64,000 bases of DNA from positions 11,334-75,333 of the IMG/VR virus record IMGVR_UViG_3300021400_000057; one strand, given 5' to 3'. Below, piece by piece: positions 5,227 through 62,943 of this stretch. Made by a program: the position numbers and the translations under genes. The stretch's first letter is position 1; each line of letters opens with the position of its first letter. Source of the stretch: a virus (Duplodnaviria > Caudoviricetes). The notes beneath the pieces are model-generated. The model saw nothing but the letters and a program-made list of their open reading frames with translations. It was not told the origin of the DNA and did not search any database.

Positions 5227-7127
5227 ATACGTTCAGCTTTGTTCCGCATAGGGACGTAAAGGTTTCATATCAATTCACCAATAACACTACCTCCTTCTTT
5301 TCGGGGGCAAAGCAAATCAATCGGCGTAGGATTCATGCCGAGAAATCATTTGCTTTTACGGTGTCTGGATTGAAAGAAGAAATGGACGCTCTGATAGCGT
5401 TTTATAACAAACAGCATGGTATGAAAAAAGAGTTTCTCTTTGTTTACGACGGCATAGAGGAACATTGTTTCTTTGCCGCGCCTATCTCTGTATCAGCTAT
5501 TCGTGAGCTTAATAAGGTTGTCGGATATGAGGCAGAAATAAAACTCGCTTGTTCATATCAGACTTCTCCGTATGAAGGTCGCGCCTTGCCTAGCGATATA
5601 TTGGACATTACGCCGAAAGATAAGGTTGAGCATAAGATTGATTGGAATACTAATGTCGTGTCTATGATATTAAATGCAAGGCAGGAAACTTATAGTGAGC
5701 CAACAGAAACATTTACTGTTCGTCTTGTTGGCACAAAAGAAAACCGTGATGAGCTTTGTAGATTGTTTAATTTACATGGGACTATGCCGTTTACATTCCG
5801 CTTTGACGGCAAGGATTATCTTGTACGTTTTCCTGACTCAATCGAGATTACTGATAAGCGGTCAATGACGCAGATAATGGGGTTTGAAAGTAGCTTTGAT
5901 TTGGAAGTTATCAAAACTCCGAATAACGGGACGTACTACCAAGCGCCAACCACAAATATTCCAGCTATTGTTGTGAAGGAAGATTTGAGTTTGCGTGATT
6001 GGTATGAAAACGGGTGCATGATTAAAGGGGTAAGCTATAAAAATAACTTGGATGCTGGCTTGGCAAAGTTACAGAACTTCTATATCACTGACTGCACTAA
6101 CGCATTTTTTGAAGCGCAGGATGTCTACGAGATTCCAGAGCTTGACACTACGAAATGCGAGTTGTTCAGTGGAATGTTCTATAAGTCTAAAGTCAATCTT
6201 GTCAAAGGGCTTGACCTTAGTAAAGCTACTGACACTAATTGTATGTTTGAAGGTTGCGAGATTGAGAGTTTGAACGCCTCGCTTAATATGCCTTTCAATC
6301 AGAACGCACAATGTATGTTCCGTGGGGCTAGGAATATTAAGTCGTTGCCAGACGTTACGATAGGTCTTGATGAAATGCCTCGTGAGCTTTTCCGTGCGGC
6401 GTATAGTTTGGCAAGCGTAAAAAGTATTACGATACCAAATGCGAAAAACTTGAACTATTTGTTTGCAGGAACAGCGATTGAACGCTTGCCAGCATTGGAC
6501 TTTCCAAAACTGGAACAAGCGGTTCTCATGTTTGGTGGTTGCAATTCTCTTAAATCAATCTCGTTTAGGAATAGCGGAGTACCTACAGATGTCTTGGGGA
6601 TGTTTTTGTATTGCTTTGCATTGACTGATGTAAGCAGATTGAATCTGACTGCTGTTGTCCCTGCGGAGTATCCGATTATGTCCAAACTTAATCCAGACAG
6701 CACAAACAACTGTTTGTACTTTGATTTGTTTATGAACAGCGGCGACGATTATTACAATATGTTTGCTGAAAATCCTTCTGACGCTCATAACTATCCGTAT
6801 ATTGGTTCTCATCCAGACGGTCAGGTTCACCTTTACGGTAGTGCTTTGAAGTCAATGACTATCATTGAGGATGCTAAAAAATCATGGCAGGAGCTATTCG
6901 ATAAGTATTATGGTGCTTTAAGTGTTGGCGGCATGATAGAAGGGGAGCGCAATAATAGCGGCGACCTTGTAGCGGAACATTATTACCATTACCACAATTC
7001 AATCGACACATTGACTATCATAGATAGCGATGGCAAAAGCCTTGTTCGATTTAAGAGTAGCGATAAATACGATGGGTACGATTGGATTGAGGATTACAGA
7101 CAATCTCATTATGGAAGTGGGGGATAA
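5223..7127 (+). CDS. Distal/minor tail protein fused to DUF285/BspA-like repeats
   Basis: Two similar N-terminal tail modules (..F.F..DG...V.F) followed by repeats such as LDLSKATDTNCMFEGCE and NAKNLNYLFAGT. The ORF track starts at TTG 5187; SD spacing favours ATA at 5223. Confidence 0.7.
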   Translation: MDTFSFVPHRDVKVSYQFTNNTTSFFSGAKQINRRRIHAEKSFAFTVSGLKEEMDALIAFYNKQHGMKKEFLFVYDGIEEHCFFAAPISVSAIRELNKVVGYEAEIKLACSYQTSPYEGRALPSDILDITPKDKVEHKIDWNTNVVSMILNARQETYSEPTETFTVRLVGTKENRDELCRLFNLHGTMPFTFRFDGKDYLVRFPDSIEITDKRSMTQIMGFESSFDLEVIKTPNNGTYYQAPTTNIPAIVVKEDLSLRDWYENGCMIKGVSYKNNLDAGLAKLQNFYITDCTNAFFEAQDVYEIPELDTTKCELFSGMFYKSKVNLVKGLDLSKATDTNCMFEGCEIESLNASLNMPFNQNAQCMFRGARNIKSLPDVTIGLDEMPRELFRAAYSLASVKSITIPNAKNLNYLFAGTAIERLPALDFPKLEQAVLMFGGCNSLKSISFRNSGVPTDVLGMFLYCFALTDVSRLNLTAVVPAEYPIMSKLNPDSTNNCLYFDLFMNSGDDYYNMFAENPSDAHNYPYIGSHPDGQVHLYGSALKSMTIIEDAKKSWQELFDKYYGALSVGGMIEGERNNSGDLVAEHYYHYHNSIDTLTIIDSDGKSLVRFKSSDKYDGYDWIEDYRQSHYGSGG

Positions 7128-7939: not shown

Positions 7940-10909
7940 TTGGGTAAGGACGGTAAGAGAGGAAAGACTACTTGGAGTCTTATTGGTTTTGTTATCGGCG
8001 CGGCTTTCTTCGGTGGTGTTGCTGGCTCTGCAATCAAAGCAGGACTTATGGGCGCGTCATTGTTTGGCACAATATGGACGGCGTTAAATAAGGATAACCA
8101 AAATAGAGACAACGGCTCAGCTACGGTAGCCCGTTTCAGTCGTTCGCAAGAAACGATGACATCCAATGGTTCGATACCACTGGTGTATGGGTTAAGGCAA
8201 GTTACTGGTAACCAGACATACCACATGACCGATGCCGATGCCAACACTCTGTATAAACATATAGTATTGTGTGAAGGCGGCATCAAAGGGATTCAAGGTT
8301 TGACTGCGAGTGATTTACTTGTCCCCGGCAATGGGTTTGACAATAACGTAGTATTTACAATTCAGAATACGAAGTACGCAGATGCGAGAGTGTGGAAGGA
8401 AGGACAAACCTTAAACCTGTATTGTAACGGGAGCACAAAAAGTATCCACCTTTGCAATAAGAATGACTTTGAGACAGAGAACGATGTAGAGTATTGGGAA
8501 TGGCAAACATCAATCTCTGCCTTAATAGCGTACATTAACCGCCTACATCAAGGGTGGGAGTGCTTTCCTATTGCGACTACAAGTAAATACCCCGGCGACA
8601 TTTCTATCGCCTACGCAAAGCGTGTGTTTGACAAACACTTAGTTAAAGGTGTGTCGGTTTCGCCCGATGGCTCTCGTCATTCTGGGTATTTAGGTATCAA
8701 CATCATTGCTCCGTCTGGCAAGGCTGTTGCGTTCAAGAGTAGTGACAACGTAACTATGTATTGCATGGCGGCTGTCAAGGATGATATTCCTGCATGGAGA
8801 GAGAAACTTGCACATAGCGATGACCCAGATTCTCTTGACGAATACCATTTCATCAAGAGTGGTAGTGGGGCTTGGTTTCGTGGACACGATGCTCAACCGG
8901 GCGAGTTAATCAATGATGCGAACCGTATTGATACTCAGATTGTTTGGGTATGGCGTGAAGAAAGTTCTTCGGTTTCATGCTATAAAAACCCTGCAATGGC
9001 AACCGCTGAAACCGTAACTGGCGGTACAAAGTACACGTTCCATGATGGAGCTTTGCCAAGTAACTATACAGAGGTTGGTGCGTATCCGAACATGGCATGG
9101 ATAGAAATGACCTGCTGTGTTGCTGACGAGCTTAGTGGTAACCCGTCGATTTCTTGTGAGGTCTTTGGCAAGAAGGTATATGACACACGCACTGGTAAGA
9201 CTGAATACAGTACGAATCCTGCAATGTGTTTGCGAGATTTCTTATTGTCGCCCGTATATGGTCTTGGAAACTTCCTCGATGCAAGTGACTTGGACGAGGA
9301 TTCTTTTAAGGAAGCGGCTGACTACTGCGATGAAGTTATTGAGTTTGAAGCGTCTGACGATGTGATTTCACGGGCAAAGCGTTATGAATTGAATATCGTC
9401 ATTGATTCCCAACGTAATGCTTGGGATTGGGTTAGCGATATTCTTGCTTCGTTTGGCGCGTACATTGTCATCACGCAAGGCAAGCTCATGTTGAAGATGG
9501 AGCGCGAAGCTCCAATCATCTATTCGTTTGACGAAACAAACTGTAGTGATTTGAAGATAGCTCCTATCGAGCTAGAGCAAGTGCCGAATAGGTACGAGGT
9601 TAGCTTTGTTGACCCGTTGAATAATTGGGATGCGGTTAAAGCAATCGTGGAAGATTCCGCTGACCAGCATACGAGAGGCAAGATAATCACGAAGGACGTA
9701 CAGCTTGAAGGTGTCACTTCGCAGAACCAAGCATTGCGCTTGGCGCGGTTCTATCGTGATTATAATGCGTCGTGCGTTATCAATGTGTCATTCAAGACTG
9801 GCTATCAAGCATTGCATTTACAACCGGGCGACGTGGTGAAGCTCACTTATAAATGTTTTGCAGATTTTCCATTGCGTATCAATGAGATTCGAGAGGATGC
9901 AGAGGGCGGTTTTGAAATTACTGGTCGCCAATACAATCCAACGATTTATAATGATACGCTTGGCGCTCCGCTTAGAGCGTATAACTATGCTACGAAAGAC
10001 GTGCCGCTTGGCTCTGTTCCTAATGTCATCAACCTTGCTTTCAAGCAATTCTTCTACACAGATAGCAACGGCACGATTCATAACGAAATACAGGGAACAT
10101 GGACACCGCCACCGCAATACGATTACGTTAAGGAGTTTGCCATTTACAAGAAGTCCAACGACGGACAGTGGGTTCATTTGCTGAATACCAGCGGCACATC
10201 GTTTAAGACTAATGTAATGATTGGTGATGTTGTCCAGTTCAAAGTGTGTACTGTCAGCACGAATGATGATATGTCGAGTGGTGTTATTTCCCGTGAAATG
10301 GAAATTGACGGTATCGACCATCCGCCCGATGACGTTTCTGGGTTGGTAGCGGACTACAAGGACGGTCAATTACATATCACTTGGGATAAGAGTACCGAGC
10401 TTGATTTTAAGCAGTATATCGTGGCTGTAAACGGTTCACTTTTTACTACTACAAACACTTCCATAGATGCCCCTGCTGTCGATGGGACGAATAACATCTC
10501 TATCAAGGCAGAGGATTTCGGCGGCAATCAGTCTAATGAGGTTTCGATGAAGCTGGATTTAGACCTTGCACCAACCAATGTAATGAAGTTCAATGCTGTA
10601 TATTCTGGTAATTACGTTGTTCTGTCATGGCTTCCCTCTGATAGAGCAGAGTATTATAAGATAGGCGGCGCAACGTATAAAGAAGTGTATGGTGGGTGTA
10701 GCTTACTCATTCCAGTTACGACAACAGGAATGTACTCGTATACCATTAAGGCTGTCAACAGCTTTGGCGAAAGCGATGTATCCGAGTGTTCGGTAGTGGT
10801 TTCCTCTATCGAAGAACGAAATACCGTTACGACGGTAAATCTTTTGAGTGACCTTACTTGCGACGATGCTTGTAAGATTGAAGATGGTTCCCTAGTTTTG
10901 ATTCCATAA
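7940..10909 (+). CDS. Tail tip / central fibre protein (gpJ-like, phage-tail_3 plus FN3-like domains)
   Basis: SIPLVYGLRQVTGN, YSTNPAMCLRDFLL..YGLG, EAADYCDE, LQPGDVV, C-terminal beta-rich repeats; TTG start with SD aagggggt. Confidence 0.88.
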   Translation: MGKDGKRGKTTWSLIGFVIGAAFFGGVAGSAIKAGLMGASLFGTIWTALNKDNQNRDNGSATVARFSRSQETMTSNGSIPLVYGLRQVTGNQTYHMTDADANTLYKHIVLCEGGIKGIQGLTASDLLVPGNGFDNNVVFTIQNTKYADARVWKEGQTLNLYCNGSTKSIHLCNKNDFETENDVEYWEWQTSISALIAYINRLHQGWECFPIATTSKYPGDISIAYAKRVFDKHLVKGVSVSPDGSRHSGYLGINIIAPSGKAVAFKSSDNVTMYCMAAVKDDIPAWREKLAHSDDPDSLDEYHFIKSGSGAWFRGHDAQPGELINDANRIDTQIVWVWREESSSVSCYKNPAMATAETVTGGTKYTFHDGALPSNYTEVGAYPNMAWIEMTCCVADELSGNPSISCEVFGKKVYDTRTGKTEYSTNPAMCLRDFLLSPVYGLGNFLDASDLDEDSFKEAADYCDEVIEFEASDDVISRAKRYELNIVIDSQRNAWDWVSDILASFGAYIVITQGKLMLKMEREAPIIYSFDETNCSDLKIAPIELEQVPNRYEVSFVDPLNNWDAVKAIVEDSADQHTRGKIITKDVQLEGVTSQNQALRLARFYRDYNASCVINVSFKTGYQALHLQPGDVVKLTYKCFADFPLRINEIREDAEGGFEITGRQYNPTIYNDTLGAPLRAYNYATKDVPLGSVPNVINLAFKQFFYTDSNGTIHNEIQGTWTPPPQYDYVKEFAIYKKSNDGQWVHLLNTSGTSFKTNVMIGDVVQFKVCTVSTNDDMSSGVISREMEIDGIDHPPDDVSGLVADYKDGQLHITWDKSTELDFKQYIVAVNGSLFTTTNTSIDAPAVDGTNNISIKAEDFGGNQSNEVSMKLDLDLAPTNVMKFNAVYSGNYVVLSWLPSDRAEYYKIGGATYKEVYGGCSLLIPVTTTGMYSYTIKAVNSFGESDVSECSVVVSSIEERNTVTTVNLLSDLTCDDACKIEDGSLVLIP

Positions 10910-25304: not shown

Positions 25305-26462
25305 TCATTTTTTAATGAGCATATCTTGAAGTACGTCGGCGGTCTTGTGTTCGCTTGATTGTAGTAGGTGACTGTATATAGCTTGGGTTGTCATTGTGTT
25401 GGCGTGACCTAGCTTTCCTGCAATGGTTTGTAGGTCTATTCCTGCGGCAAGTAGATACGAGGCTACCATGTGTCTAAAGGTATGCGGGGTAATCCGTCTG
25501 AATCCATGCTTCTTTGTGAACCTGTCAAGCCAAGCATTGAATTGGTCTGCGTGACCAAGCCGCCCGTCGAAAGAACCAAACACATAATCGTCCTTGATAT
25601 TCTCCGCGCCTTTCCATTCGTGACGGGTTCGGAGAATTTTTTTACGTTCCTGTGTTTCCTTTTGATATGTGGCAAGGAGCTTACATACACTGTCAGGGAT
25701 AGAGATTGTACGACCAGCGCCGCCCTTTGTGCGCGGTACGATATGATTACCTATCCCGACATTGTATTGGCACTCTTGCTCGACGGTAATGGTCTTTGCT
25801 TTAAGGTCAACGTGCTTCCATTGAAGTCCAAAGATTTCTCCGCGCCTCATGCCTGTGAAAATCGTAAGGTTAATTAAGGCTTGGTGCTTGGTATCTTCTT
25901 GACTCAATGCCTCGATGATAGCTTGGCACTCTGACGTGTCTAGGATTTCCATAGGTGCTTTGGTTTTCTTTGGCTTGTCAATGTGGGCGGCAGGGTTGTC
26001 ATTGATAAACTGCCATTGTACTGCCTTTTCAAGCATGGCATGAAGGAAAGCATAGTGCTTCTGAATCGTATTTTGCGATAGCTTTTCTTCATTAGTATTT
26101 GATAGGTGTTCAATAAATTCCATTACATGAAATGGGCGTAGTCGTTGAAGCGCGTACTGTCCCAAGTATTTATCTATGCGGCGAAATAAGTAGTTATCAT
26201 ATTGAATTGTATTTATTGTAACGTGTTTCTTTGCGTAATGCGTAATGTAGTAATCAAAGAATTGTCGTAGCGTGAGTTGTCCTTCGGTTGCGGTGGTATC
26301 TCCATGTACTTCCATCGCAAATTGCTCCCATGCCCTTTGTGCGGCACGCTGACTGGTAACATTAACTGTCCGTCCTACGTTCAGTTGTTTCCCTGTGCTG
26401 TCATATCCAAGCGATACTGTCAGCCGATATGTGCCGTCTTTTTGCTTCTTTATTTTTCGCAT
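25305..26462 (-). CDS. int: Tyrosine integrase
   Basis: N-terminal arm-binding domain (GTYRLTVSLGYD), TGMRRGEIFGLQWKHVD, HTFRH, LGHANTMTTQAIYSH; SD-supported start at 26462. Confidence 0.96.
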   Translation of the reverse strand: MRKIKKQKDGTYRLTVSLGYDSTGKQLNVGRTVNVTSQRAAQRAWEQFAMEVHGDTTATEGQLTLRQFFDYYITHYAKKHVTINTIQYDNYLFRRIDKYLGQYALQRLRPFHVMEFIEHLSNTNEEKLSQNTIQKHYAFLHAMLEKAVQWQFINDNPAAHIDKPKKTKAPMEILDTSECQAIIEALSQEDTKHQALINLTIFTGMRRGEIFGLQWKHVDLKAKTITVEQECQYNVGIGNHIVPRTKGGAGRTISIPDSVCKLLATYQKETQERKKILRTRHEWKGAENIKDDYVFGSFDGRLGHADQFNAWLDRFTKKHGFRRITPHTFRHMVASYLLAAGIDLQTIAGKLGHANTMTTQAIYSHLLQSSEHKTADVLQDMLIKK

Positions 26463-26575
26463 CGGACAGACCCCCATTGATAGAAAAGAGGCTCTATGTA
26501 TGAGCCTCTCCATAATCATTTTTGTGCGGCGTACTATATTCGGGTGGTTTTATCATCTTAACTTATTACTTTATG

Positions 26576-26989
26576 TTATGTTTTTTCTTTCACTTGAAAC
26601 CGAGTTTTTTGTTTTATACCCTTGCGTGTTAATTGAAGGTCATTACTTCTTTTCTTTGGTAGTCTCGCATCATTTGTTAGCCTTGTCACTCTACTTGTTG
26701 CTTGTATTCGCACTGGTAATTCCGACATAAGACGTTGAATTTCTAGCCTTGTTTCCACCACCTTCTTTGATTGTTCGTCAAGTTCTTCATTTTTGTCTGG
26801 TAGTTCGTGCATCATTAAGTAGTCAATAGTAACGTGATAGTAGTCTGCTAATCTCTCTACGGCGTAATACGATGGTTCACCAATCTCTGTCTCAATTCTT
26901 TGTAGGCTTGAACGGGAGATTCCAGTATCGGCTTCAACATCTCGTAGTGTCCTGTTGAATGACTCTCGCAAAGCCTTCGCTCTATTCAT
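26576..26989 (-). CDS. CI-like XRE-family repressor
   Basis: LRESFNRTLRDVEADTGISRSSLQRIE..LADYYHVTIDYL; upstream of int and divergent from the replication promoter. Confidence 0.88.
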   Translation of the reverse strand: MNRAKALRESFNRTLRDVEADTGISRSSLQRIETEIGEPSYYAVERLADYYHVTIDYLMMHELPDKNEELDEQSKKVVETRLEIQRLMSELPVRIQATSRVTRLTNDARLPKKRSNDLQLTRKGIKQKTRFQVKEKT

Positions 26990-36061: not shown

Positions 36062-38155
36062 GTGATGCTAATGAAGGTAGAAAAGCGAGACGGCAGGATT
36101 GAGAACTACAATCCTCAAAAGGTAGCAAAGGCAGTAGCGGCGGCGGCAAATGAGGTAGACGAACCGTGTCCGTCAATCCGATTGTCCTTTGACAAAGATG
36201 TTGTAACTGTCGATGAGATTCACGACGAGGTTGAACGGCACTTGATGAAAGCTAATCCTGCGGTAGCAAAGGCTTACATTCTCTATCGCCAACATCGCAC
36301 GGATATTCGCGAAGGTAAGAGCGAACTCATGGGGAAGGTTGGTAAGCTGGTTGCAGAAATGAACCATGACAATGCCAACACTGGAAACAGTGCGGCAAGC
36401 AAGATGTATGGCATTGCAGAGGCCGCAAGCAAGACTTACTTCCTCGCGCATGAACCGAAACGTATGGCAGAGAATCACAAGAAGGGACGTATTTATCAGC
36501 ACGATTTGGGTTATCGTTCCCTTACATTCAACTGTTTTTTCAATCCTCTTGGGAAAATGCTGGAACATGGCTTTGACAACGGGGTAGGACGTATCCGTAC
36601 TCCGAAACGGATTGGAAGTGCAGTAGCTTTGGCGGCGATTATCCTGCAATCCAGTCAGAACGATATGTTTGGCGGTCAAGGCTTCCTTCACTTCGACACA
36701 GACCTTGTGCCGTATGTCAAGAAAGAGTTTGACTATCAGTGGGGGCAGATTATTAAGACGTTAGGCGCGTTCAAAGCTGATGCCTCTGACGAAGATATTG
36801 ACAAACTTGCATGGAAACGCACGGACAAGGCTGTGTTTCAAGCAATGGAAGCGTTTGTGTATAACATGAACACGATGCGGTCAAGGAGTGGAGCACAAGT
36901 AACCTTCTCGTCTGTCAACTTCGGCACGGATACGGGCGAAGAAGCGCGTATGATTTCCAAGAATCTGCTGAAAGCCTACATCGCAGGACTTGGTGACGGC
37001 GAGAATCCTATCTTCCCGAACCTCTGCTATCGAGTACAAAAAGGTGTGAACCTCAATCCGGGCGACCCGAACTTTGACCTTACGGAGCTTGCCATTGAGT
37101 GCGTCGGAAAGCGTATCCAGCCTAGATTTGTATTCGTTGATAGCCCTGCATATCCCGATAAGTGGGAAGCAGGAACGATGGGATGTAGAACGGCTATCCG
37201 TTCCAACGTCAACGGCGATGCTTCGCCCGATGCCCGTGGCAATCTTGCTTTTAACACAATCAATCTTCCATATCTTGCGCTGGAAGCGAATCGAAAAGCC
37301 GAAAAGACTGGCGAAAACAATGTGGTGACGTTCTTCCGAATCCTTGATATGGCAATATCCGATGCCATTGCAGAGCTTCGTGAACGCTACGGTATCATCA
37401 AGGAATTGAAAGTTAAAGACATTCCTTTTATTGGTCAGTGGTACATGGGGCATGAAGGTTTGACTTCAGAAGATACGATTGAGCCGATGGTGAAAAACGG
37501 GACGCTTTCGGTAGGGTTTATCGGGCTTGCGGAAACTCTTATGGTACTTCGCGGCGAACATCACGGACAGTCACAGACAGCGCAGGAGCTTGGGCTTGAA
37601 ATTGTTGGGCGTATTCGTGAGCGTACCGACAAAGCCACGAAAGATTACAGCCTAAACTTCTCGACATTCGCTACTCCTGCGGAGAGTGCTTGCTACACAC
37701 TTCTCAAAGCTATCCGCAAAGAGTTTGGCTACGTCGAGGGCGTGACGGATAAAGAGTATCTGACAAACTCTTTCCATTTGCCTGTAGGCTTTGAGTGCGA
37801 TATGAAAACAAAGATTGACATTGAAGCTCCGTATCATCTGCTCTGCAACGCAGGAGCTATCATGTACGTCGAGGCTCCTTCATCGCCCAAGTTCAATCCC
37901 GAAGGTATGTTGAAGCTGATTCAGTACATGGCTGAAAGCGGCGCTGTATATGGCGGCTTGAACTTCGAGCAATCCTTCTGCCGCGAGTGCCACTACACAG
38001 GTACTTATGGGGACACTTGCCCGAAATGCGGAAGCAAGAACGTGAGAACAGTGCGGATTGTCACAGGCTACCTTTCCGAAGTACAGCGGTTTAACCCCGG
38101 AAAGATTGCAGAATCGAGCGAAAGGTATGCTCATGCGGGAGGCGGATTGCATTGA
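36062..38155 (+). CDS. nrdD: Anaerobic (class III) ribonucleotide reductase
   Basis: ATP cone (VEKRDGRIENYNPQK), IYQHDL, GTMGCRT, GNLAFNTINLP, TPAES, CRECHY..CPKCG, RIVTGYL glycyl-radical motif. Confidence 0.96.
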   Translation: MMLMKVEKRDGRIENYNPQKVAKAVAAAANEVDEPCPSIRLSFDKDVVTVDEIHDEVERHLMKANPAVAKAYILYRQHRTDIREGKSELMGKVGKLVAEMNHDNANTGNSAASKMYGIAEAASKTYFLAHEPKRMAENHKKGRIYQHDLGYRSLTFNCFFNPLGKMLEHGFDNGVGRIRTPKRIGSAVALAAIILQSSQNDMFGGQGFLHFDTDLVPYVKKEFDYQWGQIIKTLGAFKADASDEDIDKLAWKRTDKAVFQAMEAFVYNMNTMRSRSGAQVTFSSVNFGTDTGEEARMISKNLLKAYIAGLGDGENPIFPNLCYRVQKGVNLNPGDPNFDLTELAIECVGKRIQPRFVFVDSPAYPDKWEAGTMGCRTAIRSNVNGDASPDARGNLAFNTINLPYLALEANRKAEKTGENNVVTFFRILDMAISDAIAELRERYGIIKELKVKDIPFIGQWYMGHEGLTSEDTIEPMVKNGTLSVGFIGLAETLMVLRGEHHGQSQTAQELGLEIVGRIRERTDKATKDYSLNFSTFATPAESACYTLLKAIRKEFGYVEGVTDKEYLTNSFHLPVGFECDMKTKIDIEAPYHLLCNAGAIMYVEAPSSPKFNPEGMLKLIQYMAESGAVYGGLNFEQSFCRECHYTGTYGDTCPKCGSKNVRTVRIVTGYLSEVQRFNPGKIAESSERYAHAGGGLH

Positions 38156-40768: not shown

Positions 40769-41055
40769 TTTTGTCATTACTGGTTGACTTTAACGACAAA
40801 GGAAGCCTGTACTCAATGACAGTTGAAACCGCGAATAAGACCAGATTATTCAAGACCCTGCATAAATATTCAAACGACGTTCGATTTATCGAGGAAAAGG
40901 AAGAACGTGGCGCGAAAGATAAAGGCGAAAGGGTTTTGTCAGACGGCTCTATTGTTCTGCGGTGTAAATACTTTGGCGACAAGGTTTCCTCTGTGTATGC
41001 CTTTGGCAAATCTCCGGGAAAGATGAATGTCCTGAAAATGGGAGTGGTCGTATGA
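40765..41055 (+). CDS. Hypothetical protein
   Basis: 96 aa with ATGA overlaps. Confidence 0.55.
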
Positions 41056-41558
41056 AAGACAAGTTGGCAGAGTTCATAGATGACTATAACTGTGGGCGTG
41101 TCACTGTCGAGGATACTTTCAGACGGCTCGATTTTGAACGGTGGAAAGAGGACAAAGCGCCACTCCCGCAGGATTATATTGAATTACCACGCGACCCGCT
41201 GGATATTGTACTGGAAAAAGAGCGTGTAAGCACGCTCATCGAAACGATTAAGTGGCTAAAACAGAACATATCCGACGAGCTTTGGCGGATTTTCTGTATG
41301 GTTGCAAGGGGATATACCCAAGAGAGGATAGCGAAAGCCCTGAATATATCGCAACCTACCGTAAGTCGTAGGCTACAAACCCTACGGGCTTTGACGGAAG
41401 GGAACCTCCACGAATTATTGTACCGTATAGAGAAGCAATATACCGCAGTTCATCCACGGCAATCAGTACAGAAACACGACGACGAGGACATGAGCCACGT
41501 CAACGGTGAAGTCCGTACTGAAAAGATTGTCGGCTGGAAAAAGTCAGACGCTAGATGA
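41052..41558 (+). CDS. Sigma70 region-4-like HTH protein (candidate late activator / sigma factor)
   Basis: IFCMVARGYTQERIAKALNISQPTVSRRL; last gene of the early operon. Confidence 0.7.
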   Translation: MKDKLAEFIDDYNCGRVTVEDTFRRLDFERWKEDKAPLPQDYIELPRDPLDIVLEKERVSTLIETIKWLKQNISDELWRIFCMVARGYTQERIAKALNISQPTVSRRLQTLRALTEGNLHELLYRIEKQYTAVHPRQSVQKHDDEDMSHVNGEVRTEKIVGWKKSDAR

Positions 41559-41715: not shown

Positions 41716-41782
41716 TGCGTTATTACAGGAGCTTTAAGCTGTCAAGTTATCCTACTTGATAGATAGGAATTAAAGACAAAAT

Positions 41783-41831: not shown

Positions 41832-42025
41832 GTTTTTATTTATAGCTCTTTATCTGACGAAGGGCGTATCGAATAGCTAGTATCGTTGGCACATGATACT
41901 AGCATATATCAATTCACTAGATACGAACATACCTCCTTTTTTCAGTAGTGTTTTTCAGTAAGCAACATAAGCAATACGAATAAAACTATCATGGTGACGA
42001 GCATGATAAACCTCTCCTTGCGGTA

Positions 42026-42220: not shown

Positions 42221-43009
42221 TTATCCATACACAGCGGCAAGCGTATTCTTCACCGTCCCTTCTCCGAAATTCAAATACTTCATCGTGGTTGTGATAGTTT
42301 TATGTCGTAAGCATTGCTGAATATCCTCGATAGGCACACCCGCTTTCTTCAATGTGTTTGCAAAGAACCGTCTGAAAGAATGGCAATGGAAATCCAAACC
42401 ATTCATAGTACACTCGTTCTGAATGAACCTCTGAATATCCCGAATCCCAAGAGGCTTCCCGCCCTCTGTCAAAAACAAGACATCAGAGAGGCCACTTCCT
42501 GCCGTTTTCTGACGCACCTTGATATAAGACTGCAAGGCATCACGCACTCTCCCGTGAACGAGGGGGATAACAGCGTCCTGCTTACCTTTTGTGTGCCGAA
42601 TTAGGATTGCATCGTCGGAAACGTCCTGCATTTTGATGGACGCAATCTCACCTACACGCAATCCATTGTAACACATTAGCGCGAATATCGCTTTGTCCCT
42701 CGGCTTCGACAAGCCTTTCCACAAAAGCTCTACGTTTGCAGGGGTAGGGCATGGTTCTACCTTTTCCTCTGCCCGATAGCCCTTGATAACTCGCGTAATG
42801 TCACGGTCATTTACGCCGTACCATTCAAGCGCAGAACGAAAAACTTGCAGATACAATCGCTTTGTAGTATCTGCAAGTCCACTGGAAATTACGTTGATAG
42901 CTTCTTGGCGTGTCCCTTCTGGGAAGAAGCCAAGCGCACGCTGATAAGTCTTAAACGTGTTTACTGATTTCGTCTGCCTGATTTCTTCCAGAAAATCCGT
43001 GTAGTTCAT
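42221..43009 (-). CDS. Second tyrosine recombinase (Xer/Cre-like, no arm-binding domain)
   Basis: Complete catalytic set: GLRVGE (R), HTKG (K), HSFRR (H..R), LRHK (H), TTMKY (Y); 262 aa. Confidence 0.92.
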   Translation of the reverse strand: MNYTDFLEEIRQTKSVNTFKTYQRALGFFPEGTRQEAINVISSGLADTTKRLYLQVFRSALEWYGVNDRDITRVIKGYRAEEKVEPCPTPANVELLWKGLSKPRDKAIFALMCYNGLRVGEIASIKMQDVSDDAILIRHTKGKQDAVIPLVHGRVRDALQSYIKVRQKTAGSGLSDVLFLTEGGKPLGIRDIQRFIQNECTMNGLDFHCHSFRRFFANTLKKAGVPIEDIQQCLRHKTITTTMKYLNFGEGTVKNTLAAVYG

Positions 43010-55911: not shown

Positions 55912-56013
55912 TTACCAACGAATCCCGCCCTTTTTGGCGCGTTCCAGCGCCGAGAACATACGGTTTACCACGATATAGAACACCACTCCAAAGATGATTC
56001 CCGCGACTGTCAT
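55912..56013 (-). CDS. 33-aa membrane peptide
   Basis: MTVAGIIFGVVFYIVVNRMFSALERAKKGGIRW; TAATG overlap with the upstream gene; SD aaggtgg. Confidence 0.55.
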   Translation of the reverse strand: MTVAGIIFGVVFYIVVNRMFSALERAKKGGIRW

Positions 56014-56588
56014 TACGCCACCTTCTTAGCCACATAGAGCTTCCACAGAGCGCTATTGCGCTCCTTCTTCGTCGCAAGATTGGCTACCTCGTCAGCGTGC
56101 TCGGCCTTGAAGTTAAGCCACTCATCCCGCGAAGGACGCTCGACCTGTTCCTGCACGTTCCCTGCGGCAGTCTGCTCCGCCGCGTAAATCTTCCAGAGCG
56201 CCTTGTTGCGTTCCTTCTGCGTCGCAAGATTCGCTACCTCGTCGGCGTGTTCCTTCTTGAACGCAAGCCAGACCTCCTTCGCGGGGAAGGGCACGCGCAC
56301 GCGCTTTCCCTGCGTGTCGGACTTCTTGGACGTGGACTTCTTGGACGTGGACTTCTTGGACGTGGACTTCTTGGACGTGGACTTCTTGGACGTGGACTTC
56401 GACTTCTCCTGCGTAGGAGCGGACGTGTTCTGCTGTGCTTTGAGTTCCGCGATGACAGCGTTTTGCGCGGCGATGGTCGCGGCCATTTGCGCGAACATAT
56501 CACGCATTTCAGTTGCAAGCCCCGTCACCGTCAGGCGTGGAGTTTTCTCCTGCATAGTCTTCTCTTGCTTCGTGTTCTTCTTTGCCAT
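56013..56588 (-). CDS. Basic protein with STSKK repeats and a duplicated C-terminal helical domain
   Basis: KSTSKK tandem; WL.FK.EHADEVANLAT.KERN.ALWK.Y twice; SD aggggg. Confidence 0.85.
   Translation of the reverse strand: MAKKNTKQEKTMQEKTPRLTVTGLATEMRDMFAQMAATIAAQNAVIAELKAQQNTSAPTQEKSKSTSKKSTSKKSTSKKSTSKKSTSKKSDTQGKRVRVPFPAKEVWLAFKKEHADEVANLATQKERNKALWKIYAAEQTAAGNVQEQVERPSRDEWLNFKAEHADEVANLATKKERNSALWKLYVAKKVA
56319..56400. repeat. 15-bp tandem repeat ggacttcttggacgt x5.5
   Basis: Perfect copies read directly from the sequence. Confidence 0.95.
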
Positions 56589-58408
56589 TGATAATACCCC
56601 CTAATATAGTGTGTGATAATACGGCTAGTCTGCTTGGGCAGACTGTTAAGGGCGCGAAGGATAAACCTTCCCGCCCTTCGTCAGACAGTCCAAGCGTCGG
56701 TCGTCAACGCAGTCTAGTCGAGCAAACTAGACGTGCCGCTATGGGATACGCCATGCACGCGGGGGACACTTGTCCCTATGCGATACTTCACAAGCCACTC
56801 CTAGCGAACAAATAGTTTCCGCCCACCATTGACCTATACACCGTCAGACCTTGCGCGGGTTACGCGCACGCCCGCCTTGTGTGGATTCACGGAAAGCAGT
56901 CTTTCCTGTCGCTATTCGTGCATAACGACACTTTTTCTATATGTATTCGGTCATCCCATGACAGGAAACACGCCCCCATATATACAGGGCTTTTGTTTTT
57001 AGAGTGGTTCCCCGCGCATTATTGCCCGTCTGATTGCCAGTCAGATAATACGCCCACTTATAACGACTACACTTTAGCCACACTTTTTCCTACACGTCGC
57101 CTATGATACGTCGATTCGTCGCCTACGTCGCCTACACTTGCTACTTGTATCTGCCTATAGCACAAGCCCTGCTTATACTACACGCTATCCGTCCATGAGT
57201 TTACACCGTCACGGAATCACGCCGCCTAGTCTGGTAGTAGTTTGTAGACAGTTTGCCATATAGACTGGAAACGCATAGTTTCCATTCTCATGTGGTTCTG
57301 GTATAGTCTTGTCAGGGTACAACAGGGACATGGTGTCCCGCAGTACACGAAACCGCTACGGATTGCGCGTCGTCGGCGATATTGCGCGCCTATTCCTATG
57401 GGGTTACCATCGGAAAGACTGCCTTTCACTTTGCGCGGGCTTGCGTTGCATTGTTGCGCGTCGTCGCTTTGCTATCCGTCAGGCAGTGTCAAAAGGCACC
57501 ATGTAGCGGGAAAATCCGCGATATTTACGGAGAAAGCGGGCTTTTGCGCTTGCGTTGCGTTGCCTTGCGCGTCCGTGTTGCGTTTGCAAGTGTCGCTTTT
57601 TTGCGCTTGCTGAAAACGGGTTACGCTTTCGGCTCCGTATGTGGTTTTCAGTGTGCCGCGCCGTTTTCACGGCGTCGAGGTGGTTTCAGGCTTTGCCTTG
57701 CGGCGTTGTCCTTTCCGAGCCTCTGCCCCCCTTATACGACGTCGCCTTGCAAAATCCTCTTTTTGGGTTTTGTCCCTTATGTGACGCGGCCTGACGGGCT
57801 TCAGACTAAAGACCCAAAAGCGTTACTCCCTTACAGCACCAACGAAGGTTGGGAAAAATCGGCAGGTAGACGTTGTGACAGTAAGGCAAACTATGATTTC
57901 AGCGAAAGTCATTATCAATTATATGGAAATACAAAGTGAAAAACGTACCGCCGAAAGCCTTGTGGCAGTAAGGAAAGCAAAAATACATTCAGTGATAGCA
58001 AGTGTTTTCAGCGTGTAAAGCCATATAACCCTTGCGGGAGTAAGAGGGGATTTTTTTTAATGTGGTTTATAGCCATACAGTGAAACGGAGTGAAAACGCA
58101 TGAAAACCATATATATCAATGGATAGAAGACACTTTGGTATTGAAAACTCAATAATGACGCGGTTTTCAGGCGTTTTTTACATGGAGAAAACAGGCAAGC
58201 GAAACAAGGGAAGGCGAAGGAAAGGAAAACAAAAAAGCACCGCAACGCAAGCAAGACAAGGGCTGACGGGCTTTTGATGAAAGATAATACCATGATAGGT
58301 AGACGATAGAAAGAAACGAAAAGGAAACGAATGAAAAAGCGTTGCAGGCCGCGTCAGCAAAGGGAAAGAGAAGGCTTTGACGTTGTGACAGTGAAAGGAA
58401 TGTAAAAC

Positions 58409-58517
58409 GCCGCAAGCGTTGGGGGAGTAAGGCGGAAAGGGATTTTTAATATTGATTGTATAGCATAATGCAACAATGAGAAAATGCCGCAAGCGTTGGG
58501 GGAGTAAGGCGGAAAGG
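58409..58517 (+). repeat. Identical 32-bp direct repeats (58409-58440, 58486-58517)
   Basis: gccgcaagcgttgggggagtaaggcggaaagg twice, 45 bp apart. Confidence 0.92.
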
Positions 58518-58804
58518 CATTGTGTTTTTGTTGAGATTGCAAAAGGGAAACAAGGGTTAAATTTTGCATGGCTTCCATACCCACGATTTGCAAGGGCTAC
58601 AGCGTTTTCATACCATTGCAAGCCGCATTAAAAAAGGGAAGTAAAAATCAGCAATGCGTCGCTGACCAGTGATAGCAACGAATAGAGGGCACATAGACGA
58701 TGCGACGATAGCAAGCAAGCAAGCAATGAAAACGCTTTGCAAGCCAAGCAGGACAACGAATGGAAAGCGATGAAAGCCTTGTAAGCCAAGCGGGACAAGG
58801 GCTG

Positions 58805-58832
58805 ACGGCGTATAATGTATATTATGCGACGT
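58805..58832. other. dif/loxP-like 28-bp recombination site
   Basis: ACGGCGTATAA-TGTATA-TTATGCGACGT; 11-6-11 layout, arms 9/11 inverted. Confidence 0.65.
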
Positions 58833-59300
58833 TACCAGACAAGGCAAGGCAATGGGTGGTATCTGTCAGCCTTTTCGGGCTTCGGTGGAATGGGACGTGG
58901 GGGGCATAGTCCACGCACACCGTAACCACCATGTAAAAACTATCGCATCACCATAAATACTACATCACTATCTCATCGCTCTTTCATCGTTACCCTATCG
59001 TCACTCCATCGGTTGACAATCAATCGTGAATCAGTAAATATTTATGTTATAGTATTGTATTATTTATGATAACATTATTAAACTCTCTAGGAAGCCCGTA
59101 GAGCGATTTTTATTTCATATATGATAAAACCATCACACCGATTATAAAAAAAGCTCCTAGACCCTTTTTTGGAAGTCTGGGAGGATTCTATTTCATATAT
59201 GGGACACCGTTTTCTGCTTGGGTGCTATTTGTATATCCTTAAAAAACATTAGTATTTTTATAATAGACTTAAAAATTTTTTTAATTTTTTTTTCAAAAAC

Positions 59301-59336
59301 GTGAATAAAATTTCTCGAAAAATGTATTATGGGTGA
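59301..59336 (+). promoter_or_regulatory. Putative late promoter, copy 2
   Basis: Same motif as 4675-4710; A/T-tract upstream; precedes the packaging operon. Confidence 0.6.
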
Positions 59337-59427
59337 ACGTACCTTTTCAAAGGTCTACCAATGAAACCCTACCGGGGGAAATTGGTGGAGCAGTTATTCG
59401 CCTCCCTTTGGGCGGAGCTACGTTCAT
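59333..59427 (+). ncRNA. Candidate multi-stem structured RNA / leader
   Basis: GTGAACGTA/TACGTTCAT closing stem encloses three hairpins. Confidence 0.4.
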
Positions 59428-59603
59428 CATAGTCGTAGTCGTGCTCGAACATAACCATACCAAACTTCCACCTGATATGGATGTATCGGAGCGAAGCGAC
59501 GATGATTGCAACCGAAGGGCGCAATCAATATGAGTAGGCTAAGAAGAACCTTAGTTCAAAAGTTTGTTTGCGAATGACGGCACTAAAGATGTGCTTATGG
59601 GGG

Positions 59604-59900
59604 GTAGGGGGGCTAGAAGTATATCTATAGATAACTAAAGATAACTAAAGATAACCTTAATAATAATAAGGTTCATCACTGATACTACTCTTGTTTATCA
59701 AGGTATATCATAGTATAACCTTACTTATCTAGGTATTCTATTCCTGTATATCAAGGTAACTCTATAGATACCCTTGTTAATTCAAGGTTCTTCTAGTACC
59801 TATAGTTCTATTAAAGATACTCACTTCGTTCGTATCTTACTTACTTCGTAAGTATTTCATATCAAGGTACTTATAGTAATAACTAAGGAGTTAGCTTAGA
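59604..59900. repeat. AT-rich short-repeat tract (gataactaaa x3; ATCAAGGT family)
   Basis: Repeats read directly; stop codons frequent on both strands. Confidence 0.75.
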
Positions 59901-60162
59901 AATCCGATAGAAGTACACCGTTATCTATGATTATCATTGTTATACCATTAACACCTATGCGGCGTATTTCTGTGGGCTTTCTAAGCCCAGACCTCCTTTT
60001 ATCTTTTGTCATCGAAAAACTTTCCCGTGAAGTTCTCTATTTGCGGCGGTAGAGTTTAGAAGCGGGACGCGCAATCTCACCCTTCGGGGTTCATATATTT
60101 TATCTGGCATACTCCTTCTGTGGGTATGCCTTTTCAATCTCAACGAAAGGATAAGGAGTTTC

Positions 60163-60819
60163 ATGGCTGGTAGAAAGAGAGCGACAAGACGGGTAGCTCC
60201 AAACCCAAAAGGCGGTAAGCTGGAACGCACAAAGCCAAGAGCGTTTCATCAAAACCTTGTAGAGCGTTATGGTATCGGCGGAATCATTAGAGAGCTTCGA
60301 TACAAAGGGACGAGCTACCGAGACATTGCTGATTATGTTAATAAGAACAAACTCATACCAAACGATTATAAGATTGGTTATGGAGCTATCGCCCGATGGT
60401 GTTCGCAGAATGACTTGGGCGGCGATATGGCTGAGGAGTCAGACCGTAAGGCAGTTAATGTCTATCGACGGAACTGTGAGCTTCTTGGGCTTATCAATAC
60501 GGCTATCGACGTTGTATCCGTGCAACTCGATGAAATGAACAAGAATGTTCGCGACGGAACGGTAAAGGTACAAGACCTTAAAGATTTGGTTATGGCTCTT
60601 GATAAACTTGCGTTGCGTCAGCAGTCACTCACACAAGAGATTGGGCAAATCCAAGAGAAGATTTATAAATATGAAACCATTGGTCGGGCAATGCAAATCA
60701 TTCGTGATATTGTCAGAGCAAGGGTTGACCAAGAAACCTATCAAGAAATCATGGAGTCCTTCGGGGAGAACCCAACATTGGTTGAGGCTATCCGCGAGAT
60801 TGCTCCATCAAATGTTTAA
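60163..60819 (+). CDS. Probable terminase small subunit
   Basis: Basic N-terminus, HTH-like segment (SYRDIADYVN), helical C-terminus; upstream of terL; SD aaggag. Confidence 0.55.
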   Translation: MAGRKRATRRVAPNPKGGKLERTKPRAFHQNLVERYGIGGIIRELRYKGTSYRDIADYVNKNKLIPNDYKIGYGAIARWCSQNDLGGDMAEESDRKAVNVYRRNCELLGLINTAIDVVSVQLDEMNKNVRDGTVKVQDLKDLVMALDKLALRQQSLTQEIGQIQEKIYKYETIGRAMQIIRDIVRARVDQETYQEIMESFGENPTLVEAIREIAPSNV

Positions 60820-61266: not shown

Positions 61267-62943
61267 ATGTCAGACGATGTAATGAAAGAAATATTTGGAG
61301 GCAGATTAAGGCGCACTGGCACTGATGCCTCAATGAAAGATAAATGCGCTACTGACTTCAAAGCGTTCTGCGAGTATTACCTAAAAGATTCCTTTCCTTC
61401 TCCGTGGAGTTCTACTTTTCACGACTGGCTGATTCATAAACTTGAAGACGTTACCTTGCAGATGAGTAAGGAAGAAACAAGGAACGTCGTAGCCGCGCCG
61501 CGAGGTCACGCAAAGAGTACGCTGGTATCCTTTGCGTATCCTCTGTGGTGTATTTGCTACAACTATAAGAAGTTCATTCTTATCATTTCGGCAACGGGGG
61601 CAGTTGCTAAAGAGTTCCTTTTGAACATTCGCACTGAGCTTGAATTTAACGAGCTTATCCGAGAGGACTTTGGGGAGCTTAAAGATGATAGTGGACTTTG
61701 GAATAATTCAGAGGTTCTTACAAAAAATAAAGTGTTCCTTACATCTAAAGGTGCAGGAACACAGATTCGAGGTTTGAACTTCAACCACACCCGCCCAGAC
61801 CTTGTGATTGTTGATGACTTAGAGACAGCAGAATCCGTTGCCTCGCCTACACAAAACGCAGACCTGCACAAATGGTTCAACTCTGACCTGATGCCAGTAG
61901 GAGCGCCGACTTGCGCGTTCTTCGTGATTGGCACGGTGCTTTCGTATTCTTCCTTGCTGTACTGTATGCTTACCAAGAGCGAATACAGTTCATGGAATAG
62001 AAAGCTATTCAAGGCGATTATTACTTTCTCTGATTCTCCGAAGTGGGAAAAGTGGAAACAGATAATCACTGACCTATCAAGGGGCGACCATGCTTATAGT
62101 GATAGCGTTGCGTACTACAACAAACACAAGAAAGAAATGCTCGAAGGTACAGAGGTACTCTGGAAAGACCAGCGCCCCAATATGTACCGTTACTTGATGG
62201 AGAAGTACATTGCAAATGCGGAAGGTTTTGCAAGCGAGTATCAGAACGACCCGCAGACAGAGGAAACGAGAATATTCAAAGTCGAGTGGTTGGAAGGTTG
62301 TATCTATAATGAACACCCGCCAATCAAGGAGGTCAGTATTGCGATTGACCCTGCCGTTAGTTCAAAGCGGCACAATGACTACTCTGCTATCATTGCAATC
62401 GCACGGTGTACTGACAATTACTTCTATGTTCTCGATGCTGATGTGGAGAAGCGTCCTCCCGACAAACTGATTGACGATTGCCGGGATATGATTAGAAGGT
62501 ACTACTCCTACAATCCGAAGGTTTCCTGCGAAACCAATCAGATGCAAGCGTTTTTCTCTAGTACCCTGCAAGCCGATATGATTGCGAATGGAATCTACAT
62601 TGATTGGAATGAAGTGTTCCATTCGACAGGTCAGAGCAAGGCAGGGCGTATTGAGTCGCTTGTGCCGAGGATTCGGCAAGGTCACATTAAATTCAAACAC
62701 TCTATGCGAGTGTTGATAGACCAATTCAAGAATTACCCCAAAGGACACGACGATGCCATTGACGCATTAGAAATGGCATTGAAGCCTTTGCTTGATACGT
62801 CGATAGCAAAGTTTAGCTTTGGTTCTATCGGGGAGAAGGGAGGGAACATCCACGGGAACATTAAATACGATAAAGCGTTTACTGGCGTTTTCGGACGTAC
62901 CTACAATGAATTTGCTTCCAACGCAACGGTATGGATGGATTAA
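61267..62943 (+). CDS. terL: Terminase large subunit
   Basis: Walker A APRGHAKST, Walker B LVIVDDLE, FFVIGT, nuclease IAIDPA..DYSAI, GHDDAIDA. Confidence 0.95.
   Translation: MSDDVMKEIFGGRLRRTGTDASMKDKCATDFKAFCEYYLKDSFPSPWSSTFHDWLIHKLEDVTLQMSKEETRNVVAAPRGHAKSTLVSFAYPLWCICYNYKKFILIISATGAVAKEFLLNIRTELEFNELIREDFGELKDDSGLWNNSEVLTKNKVFLTSKGAGTQIRGLNFNHTRPDLVIVDDLETAESVASPTQNADLHKWFNSDLMPVGAPTCAFFVIGTVLSYSSLLYCMLTKSEYSSWNRKLFKAIITFSDSPKWEKWKQIITDLSRGDHAYSDSVAYYNKHKKEMLEGTEVLWKDQRPNMYRYLMEKYIANAEGFASEYQNDPQTEETRIFKVEWLEGCIYNEHPPIKEVSIAIDPAVSSKRHNDYSAIIAIARCTDNYFYVLDADVEKRPPDKLIDDCRDMIRRYYSYNPKVSCETNQMQAFFSSTLQADMIANGIYIDWNEVFHSTGQSKAGRIESLVPRIRQGHIKFKHSMRVLIDQFKNYPKGHDDAIDALEMALKPLLDTSIAKFSFGSIGEKGGNIHGNIKYDKAFTGVFGRTYNEFASNATVWMD

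Follow-up and report, generated by a model that had tools for sequence, protein, structure and literature searches.

The locus examined here raises the question of what function is served by a short palindrome resembling a dif site in the long non-coding region of a temperate phage genome, and whether it is the target of a second tyrosine recombinase that the same phage encodes in addition to its integrase. The window, meaning the whole stretch of 64,000 nucleotides that was analysed, corresponds to positions 11334-75333 of a 75,333-bp virus record, which is itself a circular permutation cut within the portal gene. An earlier note on this DNA had proposed that the palindrome and the second recombinase constitute a phage-borne Cre/lox-like system.

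Genome setting of the site

The phage belongs to a group of temperate rumen phages of about 75 kb each, all of which possess an extra small Xer-like recombinase. No similar DNA was found among isolate phages, and searches with the large terminase (TerL) and with the recombinase recovered no close isolate relative. The window is organized in four gene blocks, the first of which comprises the tail genes, the lysis region and a lysogeny module with these two genes:

25305..26519, minus strand: integrase of 404 aa with a SAM-like N-terminal domain, the presumed integration enzyme (family and domain searches)
26576..26989: cI-like HTH gene adjoining the 404-aa integrase

A rightward replication and nucleotide module occupies 27-41.5 kb and includes primase-helicase, RusA and NrdD-like/NrdG genes. 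Its final gene is sigma-r4/HTH-like: a sigma-70 region 4/HTH protein of 168 aa (41052-41558), also present in the relatives L002, L005 and L006, closes this rightward early operon and is a candidate late-gene activator. The NrdD-like gene of the window (36062-38155, 697 aa) is homologous to an NRDD-annotated gene of L002, a 73-kb relative. The L002 homolog (L002:17830-20795) reaches 1052 aa and carries LAGLIDADG/Hom_end matches, which suggests that an intein or homing endonuclease has been inserted there; the 697-aa gene of the window has no such insertion. The leftward operon that extends over 42.2-56.6 kb consists mainly of genes of no known function, and the 262-aa recombinase comes last in it. 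Between this operon and the rightward packaging operon lies the region that holds the palindrome:

56589..60162, no strand: non-coding region of 3.6 kb holding the site, between divergent operons (ORF lists and synteny)
60163..60819, plus strand: first gene of the packaging operon (orf218), 218 aa, a possible small terminase without family match; the site lies 1358 bp upstream
61267..62943, plus strand: large terminase; the site ends 2.4 kb upstream

Equivalents of this gap, 3-4.5 kb in length, occupy the same position in L004, L002, L006 and G263-G267, and a gene-less stretch of such size that is shared in position by a whole group is unusual for a tailed phage. On the plus strand the left half of the gap is pyrimidine-rich and the right half purine-rich, GCAAG/CAAGG-type repeats are abundant, and Rfam gave no match within 56400-60400. 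Near its left border, at about 56371, a tandem 15-nt repeat (TTGGACGTGGACTTC twice in relatives) falls within a 191-aa ORF (56013-56588). Two independent metagenomic contigs, those of the relatives L115 and L117, both stop at this point; a physical genome end there was considered and rejected in favour of an assembly break, since the position is a tandem repeat inside an ORF.

The packaging operon is ordered as the 218-aa ORF, two small ORFs, TerL and portal. The nearest phage matches of TerL are the Mu-like transposable phages BalMu-1, Mushu and D3112 (31-34% identity); despite this Mu-like TerL, the region seen encodes an integrase and not a transposase. Head and tail genes of the relatives give SPbeta-type YonD/YomU matches. 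A protein 87% identical to the 218-aa ORF (P0028) is encoded on a 1.7-kb contig labelled by NCBI as a Paludibacteraceae MAG, a label that is probably a binning error because the prophage relatives are from Selenomonadaceae.

A unique palindrome with a dif core

58805..58832, no strand: 28-bp imperfect palindrome of 11-6-11 geometry (A-type), ACGGCGTATAA-TGTATA-TTATGCGACGT
58794..58808, plus strand: 15-nt direct repeat GACAAGGGCTGACGG (repeat family D2) that abuts the left arm; second copy at 58255-58269

The palindrome that had been pointed out at this position is borne out by the sequence: its inverted arms are identical at 9/11 positions, and a search of both strands of the 75,333-bp genome found one copy. 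A dif site has been defined by 11-bp inverted arms around a 6-bp spacer (PMC2958812), and the phage site shows this geometry together with the inner ATAA/TTAT of a Xer-type core. The central 15 nt coincide exactly with the core of E. coli K12 dif (dif taken from PMC2731167), as had been stated, and 19 nt (GCGTATAATGTATATTATG) form part of the dif of Idiomarina loihiensis (table in PMC2731167). The suggested likeness to loxP holds over 12 nt (CGTATAATGTAT) that are common to the canonical loxP 34-mer. The absence of the asymmetric bacterial XerD arm (TTATGTTAAAT type) could likewise be verified, the right arm TTATGCGACGT agreeing with the E. coli XerD arm at only 7/11 positions and having CGACGT in place of the outer TTAAAT.

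Within the 64-kb window, the 15-nt dif core is expected by chance 0.14 times at up to two mismatches; the observed match is exact, an event expected about 1e-4 times per window. The genome contains 20 palindromes of 11-6-11 geometry with at least 9/11 pairing, where simulated genomes give about 10.7, and the identity of the site to the whole E. coli dif (20/28) is closely followed by that of the next-best 28-mer of the genome (19/28). The significance of the site therefore derives from the exact core match and from its conservation in relatives, as palindromy and the 20/28 identity are unremarkable by themselves.

The 15-nt direct repeat beside the left arm belongs to the GCAAG/CAAGG-rich, purine-skewed flank and is not conserved in L115 or L117; it is a possible accessory sequence. 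A reading of the TATAAT in the left arm as a promoter was rejected, there being no properly spaced -35 element and no sigma-70 promoter predicted by the scan. A scan of IMG/VR for the arm pattern returned only two matches, both within a 435-aa ORF of an unrelated phage, and these were dismissed as chance. No joints or recombination junctions at the site were found in public assemblies, which is a weak test given that these hold assembled contigs only.

Constraint on the site in close relatives

The gap was reached in four close relatives; two further contigs were too short to extend to the site. L115 is a 74.8-kb contig with about 96-97% DNA identity to the window, and the same genome encodes a copy of the recombinase (P0054); L117 and L118 show about 86-88% DNA identity; and L004 is related through a recombinase 82% and a TerL 88% identical to those of the window. 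Conservation of the site in relatives that retain the recombinase gene was seen in all four:

L115:2543: GAGACGCATAA-TGTATA-TTATGCGACGT
L117:2439 and L118:223: GCGGCGTATAA-TGTATA-TTATACGACGT
L004:5679: AGCGCGTACAA-TAATAA-TTATATGACGT

Comparison of L004 with the window reveals the site as an island amid barely alignable DNA, with 17/22 arm positions kept and only 2/6 spacer positions. The right arm is almost invariant among the close relatives, L117 and L118 differing at one base, the Y/R position, and the outer left arm varies, even in the otherwise 97%-identical L115. The single inner mismatch of the window copy (T on the left, G on the right) has been turned symmetric in two different ways, as C/G in L115 and as T/A in L117. 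Such constraint is what a core site should show.

Positional homologs in distant relatives

An arm-based scan did not find the A-type sequence in relatives whose TerL is 58-64% identical. These distant relatives preserve the synteny of the region, with leftward genes for the recombinase, a peptidase and a 711-aa protein, a gap of 3-4.5 kb, and rightward orf218 and terL. Their gap contains a different 11-6-11 palindrome (B-type) whose arms end in GCTTTA/TAAAGC. The motif CTTTA-N6-TAAAG occurs in exactly one copy in each of G263, G265, G266 and G267 and in none of the reversed controls, for an estimated chance expectation of about 0.07 matches per genome; it was also found in L002, L039 and L080. 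Neither palindrome type was detected in G264, the most divergent of the five distant genomes. In G263, G265, G266 and G267 the distance from the B-type palindrome to the orf218 homolog downstream is 0.8-1.6 kb; it is larger in L002, where the gap holding the palindrome includes an IS605-type insertion with a TnpB gene (OrfB_IS605/Cas12f-like) at 5606-6724.

The ATAA/TTAT signature of Xer sites is missing from the B-type arms, which retain the 11-6-11 geometry. Their spacers are variable and asymmetric (TAACCA, TACACA, TGGCTA, TGGCCG), and their flanks are unalignable. The inner arm sequence is invariant across clade-B phages whose proteins share only 50-70% identity. Between G263 and G267, whose recombinases are 97% identical, conservation is confined to the inner 6-7 bp of each arm, and the outer arms, the spacer and about 40 bp on either side differ. 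The proteins of these two genomes are 97-99% identical, their DNA is 95-100% identical from about 50 bp to the right of the palindrome, and a block of about 550 bp just to its left has been replaced (G263 9742-10288 against G267, re-oriented loci L159/L162). The surroundings of the palindrome are a local mosaic hotspot. A clean mosaic junction exactly at the site was rejected, given that the site falls inside a variable patch of about 100 bp.

It follows that the window site is one form of a cis-element shared throughout the phage group, with a dif-like sequence confined to clade A. As the distant positional homologs are not dif-like, the resemblance of the window copy to dif and loxP may be partly fortuitous.

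A compact XerA-like recombinase

42221..43009, minus strand: XerA-like tyrosine recombinase of 262 aa, last in the leftward operon, candidate enzyme of the site

The other half of the earlier proposal, a second stand-alone recombinase of 262 aa with a full catalytic set and no arm domain, is confirmed by a Pfam match (Phage_integrase, PF00589; 2e-25; residues 102-247), by 13 homologs and by a structural model. Residues R118, K141/K143, H210, R213, H236 and Y245 are invariant across the 13 homologs and provide the catalytic R-K-H-R-H/W-Y set of the tyrosine recombinase superfamily. The AF2 model (pLDDT 84) predicts a helical N-terminal domain (residues 1-100) and a catalytic domain without an arm-binding domain, the 'simple' Xer/Cre-type architecture made up of core-binding and catalytic domains only.

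The closest known proteins are of the XerA type. A PDB sequence search matched XerA (4a8e) at 8e-27 over nearly the full length, and also 5hxy; in Foldseek the top matches of the model were XerA, with the lambda Int core and Cre also recovered, and XerH appeared among both sequence and fold matches. The best NCBIfam family is XerA_Arch (NF040815; 117.4 bits, E 8e-34), at a score below the 220-bit cut-off. The scores against the XerC and XerD equivalogs TIGR02224 and TIGR02225 were 83.5 and 72.7 bits, short of cut-offs of 335 and 330, and the XerS model gave 56 bits against a cut-off of 267. Acting without a partner, XerA has been demonstrated to recombine a near-palindromic 28-bp dif in vitro (PMC2958812), with cleavage at the spacer borders (PMC3646895).

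Homologs of the phage recombinase at 73-89% identity are found on metagenomic contigs. Each of five related genomes encodes exactly one small recombinase and also a larger tyrosine recombinase, the integrase, which in provirus G263 is placed at the provirus end; no serine recombinase was found in these five genomes.

Sequences closer to the gene were also considered as substrates. Two 11-6-11 palindromes lie downstream of it, at 41737-41764 (9/11) and 41876-41903 (10/11); both were rejected, as they fail the conservation test by falling within a segment of about 190 bp not found in the close relative L003/L004, and no palindrome near the recombinase gene is common to the relatives. Repeats of 53-78 bp at 43.3-43.9 kb were discarded as the shared N-terminal ends of paralogous small genes.

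A single-enzyme module as the favoured explanation

The site is present, unique and under selection, has positional homologs across the group and co-occurs with a conserved XerA-like recombinase. The explanation favoured here, with a rough probability of 40%, is that the phage's own 262-aa XerA-like recombinase acts on the palindrome as its core recombination site, the two forming a single-enzyme Xer/dif (Cre/lox-like) module. We infer both that the recombinase binds and recombines the site and what the reaction is used for. The Xer/dif-type module would be distinct from the integrase/attP module. The inverted arms CGYATAA/TTATRCG would be occupied by two recombinase monomers, and cleavage would take place at the borders of the asymmetric spacer. 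Recombination between two directly repeated copies of the site, which would exist only in a dimeric, concatemeric or terminally redundant genome, would then yield monomeric circles, and these would serve the resolution of replication dimers or the circularisation of incoming DNA. The presence of a single copy per genome fits recombination between genome copies and not inversion or excision, and the change of the arms with the phage lineage points to a phage-encoded binder.

The link between enzyme and site is one of co-occurrence only and is confounded with phylogeny. The trees of the recombinase, TerL and orf218 are concordant, so that shared ancestry accounts for the agreement of site type with recombinase clade; for the same reason a test of covariation beyond phylogeny is uninformative, and the site types track orf218 or any other phage protein equally well. 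The distance from recombinase gene to site is about 16 kb (15.8 kb) in the window phage, 7-10 kb in G263, G265 and G266, and about 1 kb only in L002. The Cre/lox-like system of the earlier note is supported in part: a constrained unique site and a second XerA-like recombinase speak for it, and the 16 kb between gene and site and the distant homologs that are not dif-like speak against it. More ambitious, and rather doubtful, is the extension of this reading to a whole phage lineage that would carry its own complete single-enzyme Xer/dif module in a 3-4.5-kb 'genome-processing' region alongside the integrase, monomerising or circularising phage genomes in a bacterial family that appears to lack canonical XerCD. 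Arms and enzyme would have co-diverged into two specificity types or more (CGYATAA and GCTTTA arms), supplying a natural series of small, mutually orthogonal recombinase/site pairs.

Alternative explanations

Another phage DNA-binding protein or an RNA hairpin would suit the observations nearly as well as the recombinase does. The better placed of these alternatives, which is nevertheless considered somewhat unlikely, is that the palindrome binds another dimeric protein of the phage, such as a regulator of the divergent operons, the small terminase or a protein of replication or partition. Strict conservation is limited to the inner 6-7 bp of each arm and the half-site centres are 12-13 bp apart, as in an operator for a helix-turn-helix protein; the strictly conserved B-type core of about 18 bp deduced from G263 and G267 would also suit an ordinary dimeric protein of this class. 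The location of the site between divergent operons is suggestive as well, a conserved TTGACA promoter-like element at 59013 following about 180 bp downstream and a late-promoter motif about 470 bp downstream, but the site is an isolated single copy with no predicted promoter adjoining it. For a role in packaging, the flanking GCAAG/CAAGG-type repeats could be accessory sites like those of cos/pac regions, and the orf218 clades split as the site types do. However, TerL is Mu-like (BalMu-1, Mushu; about 34% identity). Phages with a Mu-like TerL package by the headful, for which reason a symmetric cos nicking site is not expected. A replication protein is made less attractive by the position of the replication module (primase-helicase, RusA, NrdD/G) elsewhere, at 27-41 kb. 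Another binder would also leave unexplained the exact identity over 15-19 nt to genuine dif sites.

It is improbable that the element acts at the RNA level, as a hairpin for processing or protein binding in a long leader transcribed rightwards, and not as duplex DNA. Every version of the palindrome folds into a hairpin on the plus strand. The fold energy is -11.6 kcal/mol on the plus strand against -4.6 kcal/mol on the minus strand, and of the five plus-strand versions from the window and its relatives, four have z values between -2.1 and -3.4. The varying arm position would read U.G, C-G or U-A on the plus strand, 4/5 transition-type mismatches would be G.U on that strand, and purines prevail in the right half of the gap, as they would in a region transcribed to the right. 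Any DNA palindrome would fold in this way, however, and the wobble count falls short of statistical significance. The stems are short and rich in A and U, the L004 version folds weakly (-5.8 kcal/mol, z -1.5), and Rfam has no match to the region. Across the clade-B phages, moreover, the inner arm sequence itself is invariant and not the pairing alone.

A third explanation, with little probability left to it, makes the site a substrate of a host recombinase, either XerCD or a single Xer, for multimer resolution of the cer/psi kind or for IMEX-like integration at the host dif. The left arm and spacer are indistinguishable from a proteobacterial dif, both arms resemble the XerC arm, and IMEX and GGI sites likewise retain the XerC side with a degenerate XerD side (PMC5357621). 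The host itself is likely to belong to the Selenomonadaceae: in a search of 185,579 species genomes, only Mitsuokella multacida and Anaerovibrio slackiae yielded homologs of the recombinase (43-45% identical), the prophage of Anaerovibrio shows synteny with the window phage, and the sequencing runs containing the phage DNA are ruminant gut metagenomes. A recombinase homolog is present in 3/262 Selenomonadaceae genomes. In this family the evidence argues against a host Xer, since the three genomes with related prophages (G001, G002, G250) contain no XerC or XerD above the curated cut-offs and the arms change with the phage lineage, B-type arms not being Xer-like at all. The complete M. multacida genome (G001) has no XerC/XerD at E<=1e-30, and its best XerD-like match is the prophage's own small recombinase. 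Across 151 Selenomonadaceae genomes, site-like sequences were no commoner than in reversed controls and the matches were ordinary promoters. A candidate host dif at 51.9% of the M. multacida chromosome, obtained with Firmicutes-type XerD-arm patterns, was rejected because it lacks conservation within the family and matches to the patterns occur at control rates.

Evidence from relatives speaks against integration through the site. An IMEX attP is split at the prophage ends, but the B-type palindrome, the positional homolog of the site, is intact and internal in two integrated relatives, prophage L006 (on a 171-kb Anaerovibrio contig) and provirus G263, the latter with its integrase at the provirus end. 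The palindrome is for this reason not an attachment site, and the phage encodes an integrase of its own.

Finally, a chance AT-rich palindrome merely resembling dif is very improbable: about 10 such 11-6-11 palindromes are expected per genome (20 observed) and the 20/28 dif identity hardly exceeds the next-best 19/28, but the exact 15-nt core match, the conservation in L004, L115, L117 and L118, and the single-copy positional homologs in 4/5 distant genomes, with none in controls, effectively refute this reading.

Implications

If the pairing of recombinase and palindrome holds, the group would combine a Xer/dif system carried by the phage itself with a classical integrase, joining the known class of phage- and plasmid-borne resolution and circularisation systems in an unusual host setting. 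It would also indicate in what way dimers or terminally redundant ends are dealt with by an integrating phage whose likely hosts seem to lack XerCD. In addition, the compact 262-aa recombinases with their short, naturally diversified targets may serve as orthogonal tools for genome engineering. Should the pairing be false, there would still be a cis-element, strictly conserved and present once per genome, in a non-coding region of unusual length throughout a group of rumen Selenomonadaceae phages.

Comparison with known systems

The protelomerase/tel systems of the N15 TelN type share with the phage a palindromic target, an enzyme related to tyrosine recombinases and a temperate lifestyle. Protelomerases are about twice as long as the 262-aa recombinase. 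This reading was rejected on account of the size and family of the enzyme, the absence of any protelomerase among the listed sequence and fold matches, and the fact that the phage integrates; hairpin ends are moreover impossible because the spacers (TGTATA, TAACCA) are not self-complementary.

Bacterial XerCD/dif sites of gamma- and beta-proteobacterial type have the same 11-6-11 geometry, and the XerC-type arm, the TGTATA spacer and the first five nucleotides of the XerD arm are identical in the phage site, whose degenerate XerD side is also reminiscent of IMEX attP sites (PMC5357621). Unlike the sites of XerCD/dif, cer/psi and IMEX, the phage site lacks the XerD outer arm, is intact in related prophages and has non-Xer-like arms in its distant relatives. 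XerH/difH and XerS/difSL offer examples of one Xer-type enzyme acting on a partly palindromic site (PMC5357621). In contrast with the 262-aa phage enzyme, XerH and XerS measure about 350-360 aa, are chromosomal and FtsK-linked, and are genetically linked to their sites.

Like the proposed phage module, the P1 Cre/loxP system relies on a single phage-encoded tyrosine recombinase that has no arm-binding domain, and its target is an inverted repeat, present once, with an asymmetric spacer; the role proposed for the phage module, circularisation or dimer resolution, is the same. The loxP site adjoins cre, and the P1 prophage is a plasmid. The phage gene, on the other hand, is 16 kb from the site, an integrase is also present, the phage integrates and its enzyme is nearer to Xer. 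The site also differs from the 13-8-13 loxP in being best read as 11-6-11, a 13-8-13 reading giving only 9/13 paired positions.

The remaining comparison is with archaeal XerA/dif (Pyrococcus abyssi; PDB 4a8e, 5hxy). The proposed phage system differs from it in belonging to a bacterial phage and not to an archaeal chromosome, in a site that is away from a replication terminus, and in an NCBIfam score under the cut-off. Like XerA/dif, it would consist of a compact single recombinase of about 260-290 aa, with core-binding and catalytic domains, and of a 28-bp near-palindromic 11-6-11 site that does not adjoin the gene.
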